Positions 1 to 19,274 of a stretch of 64,000 bases of DNA are shown one piece after another. Origin of the DNA: Escherichia coli (GTDB taxonomy: Bacteria; Pseudomonadota; Gammaproteobacteria; Enterobacterales; Enterobacteriaceae); assembly GCF_044324785.1 (NCBI RefSeq), contig NZ_CP172127.1; one strand, written 5' to 3'. Each line of letters begins with the position of its first letter. Position 1 is the stretch's first letter. The translations under genes and the position numbers were made by a program. The notes below the pieces were generated by a model. The model was given only the letters and a program-made list of their open reading frames with translations, was not told the origin of the DNA and ran no database searches.

Positions 1-365
1 AGAAGCGTAGGGCGATAGGCAGTATTTTGAGAAAGCTGTGTGAGTGGAAAAGCGTACGGATTCTGGAAGCAGAGTGCTGCGCAGATCATATCCATATGCT
101 TGTGGAAATCCCACCCAAAATGAGCGTATCCGGCTTTATGGGATATCTGAAAGGGAAAAGCAGTCTGATGCTTTACGAGCAGTTTGGGGATTTGAAATTC
201 AAATACAGAAACAGGGAGTTCTGGTGCCGAGGGTACTATGTCGATACGGTGGGTAAGAACACGGCGAAGATACAGGACTACATAAAGCACCAGCTTGAAG
301 AGGATAAAATGGGGGAGCAGTTATCGATTCCATATCCGGGCAGCCCGTTTACGGGCCGTAAGTAA
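1..365 (+). CDS. tnpA: IS200 transposase TnpA (Y1/HUH family), 3' part; N-terminus lies outside the window
   Basis: ORF 27..365 is open to the window edge. Translation closely matches IS200 TnpA as I recall it, with an HUH motif (HIHMLVEIPP) and the tyrosine region (RGYYVDTVG). Confidence 0.85.
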   Translation, partial: KRRAIGSILRKLCEWKSVRILEAECCADHIHMLVEIPPKMSVSGFMGYLKGKSSLMLYEQFGDLKFKYRNREFWCRGYYVDTVGKNTAKIQDYIKHQLEEDKMGEQLSIPYPGSPFTGRK

Positions 366-441
366 CGAAGTTGAATGCAAATGTCAGATCGTATGCGCCT
401 GTTAGGGCGCGGCTGGTAACAGAGCCTTACAGGCGCATTTG
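1..441 (+). mobile_element. IS200 copy, right-hand portion; left end outside window, right boundary approximate
   Basis: Contains the tnpA 3' part and a subterminal inverted repeat around 388..434 (gcgcctgttagggc ... gccttacaggcgc). The exact end was not determined. Confidence 0.55.
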
Positions 442-465
442 AAAAACCTCCGGCTATGCCGGAGG
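442..465. terminator. Stem-loop at the IS200/ybiC junction; probable ybiC terminator
   Basis: Hairpin cctccggctatgccggagg; a TTTTT run follows it on the minus strand, about 10 bp after the ybiC stop. Confidence 0.45.
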
Positions 466-473
466 ATATTTAT

Positions 474-4874: not shown

Positions 4875-5010
4875 TTGTGGCATTTTTCGGTTTTCAGGGG
4901 TAATGGTTTTTCTGTTTCTGGAAAGCGGCTCGCAATAACGTTTTCTGGAAGTGAGATTTTCCCGCAGCAGAAGAAACATCATTGCGTAGTAAAAGACAAT
5001 GCACGCAGGC

Positions 5011-5292
5011 TTATTGCGCTGGTGGCCATTGCAGGGCGGTATGCAAAACACGCAGTACCGAGAGCGTATCGCCCTCCACTTGGTAGATCAGCACATAATG
5101 CGGTCTGACAACGGCTTCATGAGTGCCAGCGACTCGTCCGGCCCGATACATCTGCGGGCGTTCACAAACCTGTTCCGCAATGGCTTCAAATTGATTATCA
5201 AGGGCAATTGCCGCTTGCGGATTATCTTTACTGATGTATACCATGATTTGCTCCCTGTCAGACAGGGACATTGGCTTCCATTCCAGACGCAT
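5011..5292 (-). CDS. ParE/RelE-family type II toxin (ParE2-like)
   Basis: 93-aa ORF with ParE-like features (C-terminal ...LIYQVEGDTLSVLRVLHTA). Its ATG overlaps the upstream gene's stop as TAATG. Confidence 0.75.
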   Translation of the reverse strand: MRLEWKPMSLSDREQIMVYISKDNPQAAIALDNQFEAIAEQVCERPQMYRAGRVAGTHEAVVRPHYVLIYQVEGDTLSVLRVLHTALQWPPAQ

Positions 5293-5732
5293 TAATCCCC
5301 CTTCAACAAGGCTTTTTTACGGGCAGCAAATAGACTTTTGGCCTCTTCATGAGAGAGCGCTGGGCGTGGATCGTCAATGGCGGCCTGCACCTGCTCTCGA
5401 AACCAGGCATCATACGCGGCAGCTTCATGAGCTCGTTTTAATGCCTCTGCCCTGTCAGGTCGGGTCGTTTTCTTCTGACCATCCGGGTCGTAATTAGAGG
5501 CGTCGACTTCAAACCGGGCAATACCAACATCTTTCAGGTAGTTGACAACCGTTTCCAGCCGTTTGAACAGGCGGATTTGCCGACTGCGTTGTGCTGCAAG
5601 AGGCCGTTCAGTGTGGCCGTATTTCACGGTCAACGACCAGCCTCCCTGGGTGCCAATAACGTGTGCTGCATCCACTACGCCAGACTCAACCAGTTTATGT
5701 AAGGTTGAGTGATCGATCGTTTCTGGTGCCAT
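5292..5732 (-). CDS. Putative antitoxin: roughly 100-aa N-terminal domain of unknown function fused to a PaaA2/ParD-like C-terminal tail
   Basis: 146-aa ORF translationally coupled to the toxin. The C-terminal AYDAWFREQVQAAIDDPRPALSHEEAKSLFAARKK resembles the PaaA2-type ParE-neutralising motif as I remember it; I do not recognise the N-terminal domain. Confidence 0.55.
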   Translation of the reverse strand: MAPETIDHSTLHKLVESGVVDAAHVIGTQGGWSLTVKYGHTERPLAAQRSRQIRLFKRLETVVNYLKDVGIARFEVDASNYDPDGQKKTTRPDRAEALKRAHEAAAYDAWFREQVQAAIDDPRPALSHEEAKSLFAARKKALLKGD

Positions 5733-5760
5733 AATGCGCTAACCTCTTTGTATACAGCAT

Positions 5761-5824
5761 GCAATTTATAATTAAAGATAGCGCAATTAATAATTAAAGA
5801 TAGCGCAATTAATAATAAATTGCA
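5761..5824 (-). promoter_or_regulatory. Putative promoter/operator of the toxin-antitoxin operon: tandem 22-bp direct repeats carrying four AATTGC half-sites
   Basis: aattaaagatagcgcaattaat occurs twice in tandem, with a flanking GCAATT-N7-AATTGC palindrome, 30 to 90 bp upstream of the antitoxin start. Confidence 0.45.
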
Positions 5825-5909
5825 TTTTTTGATCGTAAATTGTCCAGGGTGAAATTGCGGTAGAAAGAGACTTGTTGCGAAGATGCCGGGCATCGCCCGG
5901 CATAAAAAG

Positions 5910-7271
5910 TTACTGCGCAGCGGCAGGTTTACGCGGACGGCGGCGACGTTGTTGTTCGCCTGCCGGTTTGGCATCGCCGAGACGACGAGACGGTTTTTCT
6001 GCAGGTTTTGCGCTTGCAGATTTTGCACCACCTTCAGCGCGGCGTGGTTGCTGTTGACCGCGACCACCGCCTTGTCCACGACCGCCGCCACGTTGCTGGC
6101 GACCATTCTGGATCGGTTCGGCTTTGATTGACGGGTCCGGCTCATAGCCCGGAATCGCAATGCGCGGGATCTCTTTTTTCAGCAGTTTTTCGATATCACG
6201 CAGCAGTTTGTGTTCATCCACACACACCAGCGATAACGCTTCACCGGTGGCTGCGGCACGACCGGTACGCCCGATACGGTGGACATAATCTTCCGGTACG
6301 TTTGGCAGTTCATAGTTGACCACGTGCGGCAGCTCTTCAATATCCAGGCCGCGCGCAGCGATGTCAGTTGCCACCAGTACACGAATATCGCCCGATTTAA
6401 AATCGGCCAGCGCACGGGTACGCGCACCTTGCGATTTATTACCGTGGATCGCCGCACTGCGGATGCCATCTTTATTGAGCTGTTCAGCCAGATGGTTAGC
6501 GCCATGTTTGGTACGGGTAAACACCAGCACCTGCTGCCAGTTCCCTTTCCCAATCATGTGCGACAGCAATTCGCGTTTGCGTTTCTTATCAACAAAGTGA
6601 ACATGCTGGGTCACCTGATCAGACGCGGTATTGCGGCGTGCCACTTCGATTTCCAGCGGGTTGTGCAGCAGTTTTTCCGCCAGGTTTTTAATATCGTCAG
6701 AGAAAGTGGCGGAGAACAACAGGTTCTGGCGCTTCGCTGGCAGCTTAGTCAACACACGACGGATATCGTGGATAAAGCCCATATCGAGCATGCGGTCAGC
6801 TTCATCGAGGACGAGAATTTCAACCTGATCCAGCTTCACTGCATTCTGATGTTCCAGGTCCAGCAAACGTCCCGGCGTTGCCACCAGCACATCAACGCCA
6901 CCGCGCAGCTTCATCATCTGCGGGTTGATGCTGACGCCACCAAACACCACCAGCGAACGAATGTTCAGGTATTTGCTGTAATCACGGACGTTTTCGCCAA
7001 TCTGCGCCGCCAGTTCACGGGTCGGGGTAAGAATGAGCGCACGTACCGGACGACGCCCTTTGGCGTGCGGCTGGCGAGTGATCAGGTGTTGCAACAGCGG
7101 CAGCGTAAAGCCCGCTGTTTTGCCGGTACCGGTCTGGGCACTGGCCATCAGGTCGCGGCCCTCCAGCACCGCAGGGATCGCCTGCTGCTGAATAGGGGTG
7201 GGTTCACGGTAACCCTGCTCGGCAACGGCGCGCAGGATATCAGGGCTTAAACCCAAAGAATCGAAAGACAT
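5910..7271 (-). CDS. rhlE: ATP-dependent RNA helicase RhlE (DEAD-box)
   Basis: 453-aa ORF with DEAD-box motifs ([23 protein letters not shown]) and an Arg/Gly-rich C-terminal tail. Confidence 0.95.
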
Positions 7272-15645: not shown

Positions 15646-16601
15646 TGAGTAAATCACACCCGCGCTGGCGCTTAGCAAAGAAGATCCTCACCTGGCTGTT
15701 TTTTATCGCGGTGATTGTGTTGCTGGTGGTCTACGCCAAAAAGGTGGACTGGGAAGAGGTCTGGAAGGTCATCCGCGACTACAATCGCGTTGCGCTGCTT
15801 AGTGCGGTCGGGCTGGTGGTCGTCAGTTATCTGATTTACGGCTGCTATGACCTGCTCGCCCGCTTTTACTGCGGTCACAAACTGGCGAAGCGCCAGGTGA
15901 TGCTGGTGTCGTTTATCTGCTACGCCTTCAACCTGACGCTCAGTACCTGGGTCGGCGGCATTGGTATGCGCTATCGTTTGTACTCCCGGCTAGGGTTACC
16001 GGGCAGCACCATTACGCGGATTTTCTCGCTGAGTATTACCACCAACTGGCTGGGCTATATTTTACTGGCGGGGATTATCTTTACCGCGGGCGTGGTGGAG
16101 CTGCCGGATCACTGGTATGTCGATCAAACTACACTGCGTATTCTCGGCATTGGCTTATTGATGATTATCGCGGTTTATTTGTGGTTTTGCGCTTTCGCGA
16201 AGCACCGCCATATGACCATCAAAGGGCAAAAACTGGTGCTGCCTTCATGGAAATTTGCCCTCGCCCAGATGCTGATTTCCAGCGTTAACTGGATGGTAAT
16301 GGGAGCGATTATCTGGCTGTTACTCGGTCAAAGCGTAAACTATTTCTTTGTACTGGGTGTGTTGCTGGTTAGTAGCATTGCTGGCGTCATCGTGCATATT
16401 CCGGCGGGAATTGGTGTGCTGGAAGCGGTATTTATCGCGCTACTGGCTGGGGAGCATACCTCCAAAGGCACAATTATCGCCGCCCTGCTCGCTTACCGTG
16501 TGCTGTATTACTTTATCCCACTGCTGCTGGCGCTGATCTGTTACCTGCTACTGGAAAGTCAGGCGAAGAAGCTACGGGCGAAAAATGAAGCGGCGATGTG
16601 A
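15645..16601 (+). CDS. ybhN: Inner membrane protein YbhN (lysylphosphatidylglycerol synthase-like TM region)
   Basis: 318-aa polytopic ORF; start overlaps the clsB stop. Confidence 0.9.
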   Translation: MSKSHPRWRLAKKILTWLFFIAVIVLLVVYAKKVDWEEVWKVIRDYNRVALLSAVGLVVVSYLIYGCYDLLARFYCGHKLAKRQVMLVSFICYAFNLTLSTWVGGIGMRYRLYSRLGLPGSTITRIFSLSITTNWLGYILLAGIIFTAGVVELPDHWYVDQTTLRILGIGLLMIIAVYLWFCAFAKHRHMTIKGQKLVLPSWKFALAQMLISSVNWMVMGAIIWLLLGQSVNYFFVLGVLLVSSIAGVIVHIPAGIGVLEAVFIALLAGEHTSKGTIIAALLAYRVLYYFIPLLLALICYLLLESQAKKLRAKNEAAM

Positions 16602-16636
16602 AGTTTAGTTAAGTTCTTTAGTATGTGCATTTACGA

Positions 16637-17047
16637 CTAATGAAAAAAACGCGTATGCCTTTGCCAGACAAGCGTTATCGCTATTGCTGCAAGAATCCCA
16701 AAGAAGCCGATAAAATAGTAATAGAGTGTTAATGCACCTGTAACAGCGCAACGAACCGGACTCCACAATTCTTCGCTATGGCATTTTCCTGCCAGTTCAA
16801 GGAGCTTATTTCGTCCATGCGAGATAATGCCTGACCATAAAACAATCATTAAGCAACTTATTACCCAAATGGGCCGTTCACTCATTAATGCGGCATTCAC
16901 GATGATCACCAGGGCCAACCCTGTCAACGTCATCATAATGATAAAACGGTGAGAACCAGGATCAACATTAAATAATAAACCGGCCAGCATACTGATTAAA
17001 AACATCGCGCCCGCAGTGCTGAACACAAGGATAATGGCAGATACAGG
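16637..17047 (-). pseudogene. ybhM: ybhM C-terminal fragment (BAX inhibitor-1 family), separated from its 5' half by an IS insertion
   Basis: ORF 16637..17086 encodes the C-terminal portion of a BI-1-like membrane protein; its first ~11 codons read out of the IS end. Confidence 0.7.
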
Positions 17048-17089
17048 AAGTGACTGCTCCCCGTCCTGTCGGGCGAGGCTTCCCACTTC

Positions 17090-18259
17090 TTAAGCCGCAA
17101 CCGTCTGTGTGACGGATTTATGCTGGCCTCCATGGGCAGAAACGACGAGTCCCGCCGCTTGTAATTCCAGTATGCCCTTGCGTTTGATGTTGAGCGCCGC
17201 GTTGATATCGCGGTCATGTTCAACTCCACACTCTGGACACTGCCAGATGCGCTTACGTAATGGCATCTCCGACATTTTGTGACCGCAGCAGTGGCAGGTT
17301 TTCGAACTGGCGAACCATTGATCCAGTTTCACCAGATGCACACCTTTCTCTGCTGCTTTATATTCCAGTTTTGTGATGAATCCAGACCATCCAGCATCGC
17401 CTATCGCACGAGCCAGATGGTGATTTTTCATCATATTTGCCGTTTTCAATTTCTCGACAATTACCGCTTGGTTTTCGTCAACAATTGCGCGAGATAACTT
17501 GTGCTGGAAATCGGCACGGGCACTGGCTACCCGTTCGTGAACGGCTGCAAGTTGTATTCTGGCTTTGCGCCTGTTTGCGCTCCCTTTTTTCTTACGGGAC
17601 AGTGCTTTCTGCTTCCGGCGCAGGTTGCGACTTGCATTGATTAGGTGGCGGGGACTGGCAATTTTATTGCCGTCCGATTTGATGACAAAATGCGCCAGCC
17701 CCATATCCAGCCCTGTCACATTTGATATCAGTGCGGGCTTTGCCGGCGCTTCCATCCCGTCGTCACAGAGTAACGACGCGTAGTATTTCCCGGTTGCGCT
17801 GCGGCTCAACGTGATACTTTTCAGCATTCCCGTAATTTCACGATGTAAACGCGCTTCAATCGGCAAGATTTTCGGTATTTTTATCGCACCATCAAGGACT
17901 TTTATGCCAACACAATGATAGCTCGATTGTCTGCCGTGTTTACTTTTAAAGGTAGGTTTACCTGCTTTCAGTTTCGGATTGAAAAAGTTAGAAAAAGCCA
18001 CGTCGAGGTTAATTACCGCCTGCTGCAACGCAATAGAATCATATTCTTTAAGCCATCCATACCGGCGGGATTTCTTCGCCACTGCAAGCAGTGGTTTGAG
18101 GTCTTTACGCGGGTTTAAATTTACGCGGTGCCGCTGGTAAGAATGTTTCTTGATATGCAGAGCTTTGTTGTACGCAAAACGCACTGCACCGAACTGGGCG
18201 TTGATAAATTCAGCCTGTTCTGGTGTCGGGTAGATGCGTACTTTTGTTGCTCTTAACAT
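17090..18259 (-). CDS. tnpB: TnpB (IS605 OrfB family; RuvC-like RNA-guided endonuclease)
   Basis: 389-aa ORF with RuvC-I (GLDMGL), RuvC-II (VIVEKL), a CxxC...CxxC zinc finger (CHCCGH ... CPECG) and RuvC-III (HDRDINAALNI). Confidence 0.9.
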   Translation of the reverse strand: MLRATKVRIYPTPEQAEFINAQFGAVRFAYNKALHIKKHSYQRHRVNLNPRKDLKPLLAVAKKSRRYGWLKEYDSIALQQAVINLDVAFSNFFNPKLKAGKPTFKSKHGRQSSYHCVGIKVLDGAIKIPKILPIEARLHREITGMLKSITLSRSATGKYYASLLCDDGMEAPAKPALISNVTGLDMGLAHFVIKSDGNKIASPRHLINASRNLRRKQKALSRKKKGSANRRKARIQLAAVHERVASARADFQHKLSRAIVDENQAVIVEKLKTANMMKNHHLARAIGDAGWSGFITKLEYKAAEKGVHLVKLDQWFASSKTCHCCGHKMSEMPLRKRIWQCPECGVEHDRDINAALNIKRKGILELQAAGLVVSAHGGQHKSVTQTVAA

Positions 18260-18315
18260 AATCAGCGCTCATTGATATAATGCTTTTATTTTAACACTTT
18301 AGGTGAATATATCAA

Positions 18316-18741
18316 TTGAGTAATCATGATGATTTACTGGCGGGATTTCTCCGCAAACGACACAGTGTCAGTAAGCTGGTTGTGCACCTTATTTTTACGA
18401 CAAAGTATCGACGCAAACTATTCGACAGTCAGATGATCGCTCAGTTGCGTGAGGCTTTTGGCTCCGCTGCGGCAAAGCTTGAATGCGAAATTATTGAGAT
18501 GGACGGGGAGCCAGACCATGTACACCTGCTGGTGGCCTACCCGCCAAAACTGGCGGTCAGTGTGATGGTCAATAATTTAAAATCGGTATCATCACGTTTG
18601 CTACGCCAGCAGAACGCGCATTTACGTATGCAGAGTAAAACGGGGCTTTTGTGGTCGAGATCGTACTTTGTCTGTAGCACCGGAGGGGCAACGATTGAAA
18701 CGCTCAGAGCCTACGTTCAGAGTCAGTCAACACCTGATTGA
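18316..18741 (+). CDS. tnpA: IS200/IS605-family Y1 transposase TnpA
   Basis: 141-aa ORF with an HUH motif (HVHLLV) and a catalytic-Tyr region (SRSYFVCSTGG); divergent from tnpB. Confidence 0.9.
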   Translation: MSNHDDLLAGFLRKRHSVSKLVVHLIFTTKYRRKLFDSQMIAQLREAFGSAAAKLECEIIEMDGEPDHVHLLVAYPPKLAVSVMVNNLKSVSSRLLRQQNAHLRMQSKTGLLWSRSYFVCSTGGATIETLRAYVQSQSTPD

Positions 18742-18813
18742 TCTTTAAAGCCCTGCGGGCTTTTCGCCTTATATCCCCGCCCGCATTGGGCGAGGGTTTA
18801 CGGCGTTTTTCGC

Positions 18814-19113
18814 TAAACTTGCAACGACAATCGCCACCAAAGAGAGTAAAAACAGATATATTACGCCTGCGATGGCGGCATTTATCTTGTTGATATCCTT
18901 ACTTAAGCCATACATACAAAGTAATAATAACCCTATGGCGACATACATTGGTGGTGAATCATATTTGGTTGCCGTAATTTCGAGATACTTAGCTCCCCAG
19001 GCCAGTCCTGCGGTTGCCACCAAACCTAAAGCGGTAATGAGCCATATACCGTTTAATATCCTGGCCTCGTGCTGAAAATCTAATTTATTGCTGTTTTGCG
19101 AGTATGATTCCAT
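18814..19113 (-). pseudogene. ybhM: ybhM N-terminal fragment (BAX inhibitor-1 family), truncated by the IS insertion
   Basis: ORF 18769..19140; BI-1-like N-terminus from MESYSQNSNK to ...VVASL, then 14 IS-derived codons and a stop. Confidence 0.7.
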
Positions 19114-19274
19114 TCTTTTAGTTGTCCTTAGAAAAAACATTAATATTTACCATCAATAAATTTAAAGCCACGCATACAAAATACTTTTTTATTTATGGAT
19201 ACGGAAAACGCTTCCGCTCGCTCATAAGGCATATTTTATACCTGGTACTTGTTAAGTGTCGTTTTTTCGTAAGA

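Follow-up and report, generated by a model that had tools for sequence, protein, structure and literature searches.

Introduction

The closest described counterparts of the element treated here are IS608 of Helicobacter pylori and ISDra2 of Deinococcus radiodurans. IS608 has a Y1 HUH transposase (TnpA), imperfect subterminal hairpins on one strand and a 5' tetranucleotide target, and produces no target-site duplication; its tnpA and tnpB genes are co-directional, whereas those of IS605 are divergent. In ISDra2, a structured RNA extends over the 3' end of tnpB and the right end (RE) of the element, the flank serves as guide, and the target-adjacent motif is TTGAT. An omega RNA scaffold spanning the tnpB 3' end and RE, with the flank as guide, is the arrangement described for TnpB, a protein that transposition does not require (PMC8612924); in related elements, TnpB has been reported to cut the donor joint (Meers 2023). 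The subject of this report is an insertion in ybhM, a membrane-protein gene, within a stretch of 64,000 nucleotides of Escherichia coli DNA (contig NZ_CP172127.1 of assembly GCF_044324785.1), the whole of which is called the window. We are highly confident that the inserted element is a complete copy of ISEc46, a member of the IS200/IS605 family with the divergent IS605-type layout, and that its insertion has inactivated the gene.

The insertion is an ordinary event, involving a named, already known element and a well-described mechanism. This report adds the precise position and the anatomy of the ends, the TTAG target, an omega RNA structure with comparative support, the distribution by lineage, and two private substitutions at sensitive positions. 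A literature search yielded no experiments on ISEc46, nor on any TnpB that recognises TTAG; the only mentions of ISEc46 were in lists of mobile elements.

Identity, ends and target site

The element, its target and the two parts of the interrupted gene are as follows.

17050..18812, minus strand: complete ISEc46 element, 1,763 bp; both ends fixed unambiguously by empty-site alignment and ten other copies.
18813..18816, minus strand: target tetranucleotide TTAG (CTAA on the plus strand), abutting the left end (LE) on its 5' side and present in the empty ybhM allele.
16637..17049, minus strand: ybhM 3' fragment, 413 nt (empty-site comparison).
18813..19113, minus strand: ybhM 5' fragment, codons 1–100 plus one base, 301 nt (empty-site comparison).

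Both ends were set by aligning an uninterrupted ybhM allele (L002, NZ_CP100978.1) and ten other ISEc46 copies located at six other sites. A first-pass annotation of the window, made from the letters alone, had put the element at 17048..18813; the place was right, and the bases given were one or two off at each end. Over the full 1,763 bp the window element is 99.1–99.7% identical to copies that RefSeq labels as ISEc46 family, the labels on these near-identical copies being 'IS200/IS605-like element ISEc46 family transposase' and 'RNA-guided endonuclease InsQ/TnpB'. The top (active) strand of the element is the tnpB-sense strand, that is, the minus strand of the window, on which the order is TTAG, LE, the body of the element, RE and flank. 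Similar subterminal imperfect palindromes are found at both ends on one strand, as expected of a family without terminal inverted repeats.

The plus-strand CTAA at 18813..18816 is present in the empty site and beside every copy, and therefore belongs to the target and not to the element. On the tnpB-sense strand, TTAG borders LE at 7/7 distinct E. coli sites, at a prophage site and at 54 left ends of relatives from Photorhabdus, Serratia, Idiomarina, Halomonas and others. This tetranucleotide is predicted to be both the left cleavage site and the target-adjacent motif of TnpB. Comparison with the empty ybhM site revealed no target-site duplication, as the first-pass annotation had stated, and no lost base.

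Joining the two fragments (413 + 301) gives 714 nt that encode an intact 237-aa protein with 3 amino-acid differences from that of the L002 allele; no second lesion was found in the rebuilt gene. The earlier proposal that the fragments are contiguous halves of one gene is thus confirmed by the comparison with an uninterrupted allele. The 5' fragment continues into LE to form a chimeric open reading frame (ORF) of 114 aa (18769..19113). Neither fragment matched any NCBIfam model; the identification rests on the RefSeq annotation of intact alleles, in which the gene product is named 'Bax inhibitor-1/YccA family protein'. Gene order around the element (clsB, ybhN, (ybhM), ybhL, moaE-A) is the usual E. 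coli arrangement; the conserved ybhL-ybhM-ybhN neighbourhood is kept, and the window is collinear with E. coli 18KM2445.

Damage to ybhM is also seen elsewhere: strain 410 (H10) carries an insertion of the insertion sequence (IS) IS1, 18KM2445 retains a 390-nt remnant ORF, and the gene is only partially covered in several further E. coli genomes. This repeated disruption across E. coli suggests that ybhM is dispensable.

Transposase, TnpB and promoters

18316..18741, plus strand: tnpA, Y1 HUH single-strand DNA transposase, 141 aa (NCBIfam NF033573, expect value (E) 1.8e-41).
17090..18259, minus strand: tnpB, RNA-guided endonuclease, 389 aa (NCBIfam NF040570, E 9e-102).
18253..18315, no single strand: divergent promoter region between tnpB and tnpA (consensus scan, predictions only).

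These NCBIfam matches bear out the IS200/IS605-family assignment of the first-pass annotation. Its description of divergent, full-length tnpA and tnpB genes with intact motifs agrees with the alignments to IS608 TnpA and ISDra2 TnpB. Residues H68, H70, Y133 and Q137 of TnpA align with H64, H66, Y127 and Q131 of IS608 TnpA (2a6m; E 3.5e-20), and several other ISEc46 copies encode exactly this protein (WP_000064874.1; 100% identity). The tnpA start codon is TTG, as in RefSeq, with AGGTG upstream.

TnpB aligns end to end with ISDra2 TnpB (8bf8; E 6e-75). Its RuvC residues D185, E269 and D351 fall on D191, E278 and D361, and its zinc-binding cysteines C322, C325, C341 and C344 are matched; all of these residues are kept in the window protein. 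In a census of 70 TnpB relatives, the RuvC and zinc-finger positions were invariant or nearly so. The residue directly after the catalytic Glu is Thr in 69/70 relatives and Lys in the window TnpB (T270K).

The tnpA-tnpB spacer measures 56 bp, and the two promoters predicted by the consensus scan stand back to back. The predicted tnpA promoter lies on the plus strand at 18253..18281 (TTAACA-17-TATAAT; 11/12 consensus matches), and the predicted tnpB promoter on the minus strand at 18315..18288 (TTGATA-16-TAAAAT; 10/12); both have an extended -10 TG. A further promoter-like site occurs inside tnpB on the minus strand at 17661..17688 (TTGTCA-16-TAAAAT; 10/12), some 500 nt before the structured 3' region described below. 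A separate omega RNA transcript might start from it, or the match may be due to chance.

Anatomy of the element ends

18742..18812, minus strand: LE; DNA folding -19.4 kcal/mol, z -3.4; conserved in relatives.
17050..17089, minus strand: RE; conserved across 55 relatives.

LE contains an imperfect subterminal hairpin at 18775..18795, CCTCGCCC-AATGC-GGGCGGGG, which folds alone at -8.8 kcal/mol (DNA folding). The predicted left guide is AAAC (18796..18799), and past the tnpA stop codon lies a second stem-loop (18747..18763). RE contains a subterminal hairpin at 17059..17078, the predicted right guide GAAG at 17079..17082 and the predicted right cleavage site TCAC at 17050..17053. The RE consensus hairpin, CCTCGCCC-GACA-GGGCGGGG (-8.4 kcal/mol), has the same arms as that of LE. 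Covariation is seen in the RE hairpin: alignment pair 225/245 changes between C:G and G:C (the latter in 17 sequences), and pair 222/248 covaries in 3. The predicted guide and cleavage-site pairs AAAC/TTAG and GAAG/TCAC parallel those of IS608 in sequence, and the guides are nearly invariant in the clade. A search of the window with the hairpin motif for miniature (gene-less) derivative copies matched LE itself and nothing else.

A conserved RNA-like structure at the right end

17050..17160, minus strand: conserved structured region, predicted omega RNA scaffold, five helices, 111 nt (RNAalifold, 45 sequences).
17034..17049, minus strand: RE flank TTCCTGTATCTGCCAT, predicted 16-nt guide part of the omega RNA (guide role after Karvelis 2021 (PMC8612924) and Meers 2023).

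The structured region overlaps the 3' end of tnpB and RE. It was obtained from an alignment of the last 240 nt before the RE tip in the window and 44 relatives (Photorhabdus, Serratia, Rahnella, Idiomarina, Halomonas and others). In the curated structure 97.6% of cells are paired, and compensatory changes support 15/32 pairs. Controls in which pairing partners were slid by 1–3 columns gave at most 4 compensatory pairs and 35–54% paired cells, and 0/500 shuffles reached the observed values. Folding of the tnpB 3' region as a single sequence was uninformative (z -0.6), the structure being visible only in the comparative alignment. By its covariation, and by analogy with described TnpB systems, the 111-nt structure fits an omega RNA scaffold. 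The rebuilt ybhM site reads AAGTTTAG followed directly by TTCCTGTATCTGCCAT, so that TTAG and the RE flank together spell the restored site.

Distribution and lineage

Of the complete RefSeq E. coli genomes, 455/5,426 contain full-length ISEc46, in most cases a single copy. The sites differ, and among them are an iclR-type regulator, the yebE-ptrB spacer, oppD, an integrase gene, a plasmid gene and the ybhL-moaE spacer. At least seven sites are occupied in E. coli. None of the 5,426 genomes carries ISEc46 in ybhM. The sole match with 100% coverage, E. coli AST215, was considered as the same insertion and rejected; its element (L001, 3287..5049) is an independent ISEc46 insertion beside TTAG in the ybhL-moaE spacer, about 1.3 kb from the ybhM site, and its ybhM is intact.

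In public assemblies, the exact window TnpB was found in 57 blocks, with ybhM context in 21 of the 24 contigs read, one of these being 100% identical to the window across 7,170 bp. The chimeric 114-aa YbhM-LE ORF was found in 62 blocks of the assembly collection, including contigs of 4.9 Mb and 5.7 Mb. With the chimeric ORF or the TnpB in about 60 blocks and the ybhM insertion in 0/5,426 complete genomes, the insertion is therefore fixed in one E. coli lineage that has no members in the complete-RefSeq set. The window is collinear with the 5,426 genomes, but its identity to them over 12–20 kb is at most 98.7–98.9%, which is consistent with an unrepresented lineage. Because of this ceiling, Shigella or a cryptic clade was considered as the host lineage and set aside: the window follows the E. 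coli gene order, and the only other IS in it is the cut IS200 at its left edge. In one assembly (L101, GCA_053151395.1) the same ybhM::ISEc46 insertion is present and tnpB is truncated at 151 aa by IS1; enough time has therefore passed since the ybhM insertion for a second one to follow.

Several further occurrences of the element or its parts were recorded. A hybrid ISEc46 in GCA_040038515.1 (L016, 2448..4210) has the ptrB site as LE flank and the ybhM 3' fragment as RE flank; its first approximately 280 nt carry the alleles of the yebE-ptrB copy and the remainder those of the window. From the K-12 gene orientation we take it that the parent copies of this hybrid would be direct repeats, and, if so, the hybrid is either a recombination duplication junction or an assembly chimera. 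A contig assigned to an unrelated metagenome-assembled genome, 'Collinsella sp.' (L018), contains an E. coli ptrB flank and ISEc46 at 99% identity, and is likely to be contamination or mis-binning. A contig assigned to another unrelated metagenome-assembled genome, 'Candidatus Paceibacterota' (L020), encodes a TnpB 88% identical to that of the window. P1-like phage-plasmids, namely phage RCS47 (L104, 2501..3747) and E. coli plasmids (H158–H177), carry a solo tnpB with RE, without tnpA and LE; in RCS47 it sits downstream of repL, and the solo copies are 98.5% (some 79–84%) identical to ISEc46. More distant matches occur on 392 Salmonella plasmids. Photorhabdus shows a strong expansion of the IS clade, at least nine copies being present in a single chromosome (L039, L042–L049 and L059 in Photorhabdus thracensis and other loci); the Photorhabdus copies all have TTAG targets, and their RE hairpin loop is TTTTTTA instead of GACA.

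Private substitutions and mobility

17064, minus strand: RE hairpin stem base; plus-strand T against C in ten other copies; GGGCG to GGACG on the top strand, giving a C·A mismatch.

The window copy differs from ten other E. coli copies by four private substitutions. The change at 17064 weakens the RE hairpin from -8.4 to -4.7 kcal/mol, a cost of 3.7, at a pair that is C:G in 42/45 sequences. The change at 17451 gives TnpB T270K, adjoining the catalytic Glu; that at 17256 gives H335R at a variable position; and that at 17360 is synonymous. The first-pass annotation had neither named ISEc46 nor pointed to the changes at base 17064 and residue 270 at functionally sensitive positions.

A lambdoid prophage (L014) carries, at another TTAG, a copy that matches the window element at 1,763/1,763 positions, all four private changes included. 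The element must therefore have transposed at least once after these changes had arisen. Judged from this sequence identity, the exact window variant has moved recently, which supports the earlier suggestion that the copy is 'possibly still mobile'. The prophage copy speaks for TnpA and the ends only, and has no bearing on TnpB activity. The further description of the element as 'recent' holds in part: it agrees with the identical copy elsewhere, and it does not suit the ybhM insertion itself, which is lineage-wide (62 blocks) and whose tnpB has since been cut by IS1 in one member.

A number of points weigh against reading the locus as a complete and working ISEc46 element. Its fixation in about 60 collection blocks means that the insertion behaves as a stable marker at ybhM. 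The C·A mismatch stands mid-stem in the RE hairpin and at the same time inside the omega RNA scaffold, T270K replaces a nearly universal Thr beside the catalytic Glu, and either change might reduce excision or nuclease activity. Rfam recognised no RNA family within the element (gathering scan of the whole window; permissive scan of 16600..19200), which leaves covariation and analogy as the grounds for assigning an omega RNA. Expression and activity of TnpA and TnpB are likewise predictions from sequence.

The strongest form of these doubts is that the intact-looking copy is a functionally dead relic, in which the RE mismatch blocks recognition by TnpA, T270K cripples TnpB, or both, leaving a frozen marker in ybhM. 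The broken, otherwise conserved stem pair with its energetic cost, the loss of the Thr kept by 69/70 relatives, and the fixation of the insertion in many assemblies all speak for it. We nevertheless consider it unlikely, given that the identical prophage copy at another TTAG implies at least one transposition after the mutations, that relative L055 has the GGACG variant independently, that the active ISDra2 TnpB has His after its catalytic Glu, and that TnpB is dispensable for transposition (PMC8612924).

A milder proposal, that the window copy is a natural variant with altered activity through its K270 TnpB and the C·A mismatch in the omega RNA and RE hairpin, appears quite improbable to us. 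If K270 and the mismatch did weaken homing cleavage or excision, the copy would be a naturally attenuated TnpB system that has yet transposed at least once, and would give a small view of TnpB nucleases drifting toward inactivity or domestication.

Domestication itself, in which TnpB, no longer a homing nuclease, would bind or regulate under the direction of a guide RNA and be retained for a function unrelated to keeping the transposon, is very improbable. T270K beside the catalytic Glu would suit it, as would the near-identical solo tnpB with RE at a conserved place on P1-like phage-plasmids, where the gene persists without a transposase; set against these, TnpB keeps its three RuvC residues and its zinc finger, the element has tnpA and both ends, and the guide region is merely the insertion flank, as in an ordinary element.

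It is hardly conceivable that the split in ybhM arose artificially, from a repeat misplaced during assembly or scaffolding: IS copies are classic sources of mis-joins and the hybrid in L016 combines ptrB-side and ybhM-side flanks, yet the same junctions recur 100% identical over 7,170 bp in independent assemblies, including the 4.9-Mb and 5.7-Mb contigs and an ENA metagenome assembly, and both follow the family rule of TTAG at LE and no duplication.

Proposed mechanism

For a complete ISEc46 element in ybhM, the following course of events is envisaged. Single-strand 'peel-and-paste' transposition most probably placed ISEc46 directly 3' of TTAG in ybhM. TnpA would bind both top-strand hairpins, as may be expected from work on IS608, ISDra2 and Geobacillus elements, and the guide tetranucleotides would locate cleavage as in IS608, AAAC for TTAG at LE and GAAG for TCAC at RE. 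TnpA would then excise a single-strand circle on the lagging-strand template and reseal ybhM without a scar, and the element-free joint would be expected to read AAGTTTAG joined to TTCCTGTATC. TnpB with its omega RNA (guide TTCCTGTATCTGCCAT) would cut the restored site, consisting of TTAG plus flank, and recombination with the sister chromosome would then restore the element.

The GC skew of the window plus strand is -0.027, which therefore puts the top strand of the element on the G-rich strand, that is, the lagging-strand template. This placement matches the preferred orientation of the family and, as weak support, is consistent with the proposed course.

Other features of the window

Apart from a cut IS200-type element at the left edge, no other IS was found in the window. 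The window starts inside this IS200/IS605-family element (1..470), cut at the edge: the ORF at 27..365 (plus strand) encodes the C-terminal portion of an IS200-type TnpA (NF033573, E 2.9e-28), after which comes hairpin-rich sequence beside hcxB; E. coli 18KM2445 has ybiJ/ybiE at this place. Between dinG and rhlE (4935..5910), the window carries a RelE/StbE-type toxin (5011..5292, minus strand) and a RelB/ParC-like antitoxin (5292..5732, minus strand), where 18KM2445 carries the effector gene espX2.

Comparison with known systems

The locus is a clean, lineage-marking ybhM knockout by a named insertion sequence, and matters little beyond annotation. Work that needs an endogenous TnpB/omega RNA pair or a strain-typing marker may profit from the exact ends, the TTAG target and the predicted guide given here for a TnpB native to E. 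coli; every question testable here is already testable with IS608, ISDra2 or Geobacillus elements.

Compared with the ISEc46 copies labelled in RefSeq (E. coli genomes and phage RCS47), the window copy has the same gene layout, ends and TTAG flank; it is set apart by its four private substitutions and by its ybhM site, absent from the 5,426 complete genomes. With ISDra2 it shares the end-to-end TnpB match and a conserved structure over the tnpB 3' end and RE that would be an omega RNA with the flank as guide; the predicted motif TTAG stands in place of the longer ISDra2 motif, and directly after the catalytic Glu ISDra2 TnpB has His, the ISEc46 clade Thr and the window copy Lys. With IS608 it shares the Y1 HUH TnpA, the imperfect subterminal hairpins on one strand, the 5' tetranucleotide target and the lack of a duplication, while its divergent genes follow the IS605 arrangement. 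The target is TTAC in IS608 and TTAG in ISEc46. From the hairpin foot to the predicted left cleavage site of ISEc46 is 17 nt, against 19 nt in IS608. On the right, IS608 is cleaved 10 nt 3' of the hairpin, and TCAC of ISEc46 ends 9 nt past the hairpin foot, a similar distance. The known and predicted cleavage-site and guide pairs, TTAC/AAAG and TCAA/GAAT in IS608 against TTAG/AAAC and TCAC/GAAG in ISEc46, differ only at the fourth position, where they are still complementary.

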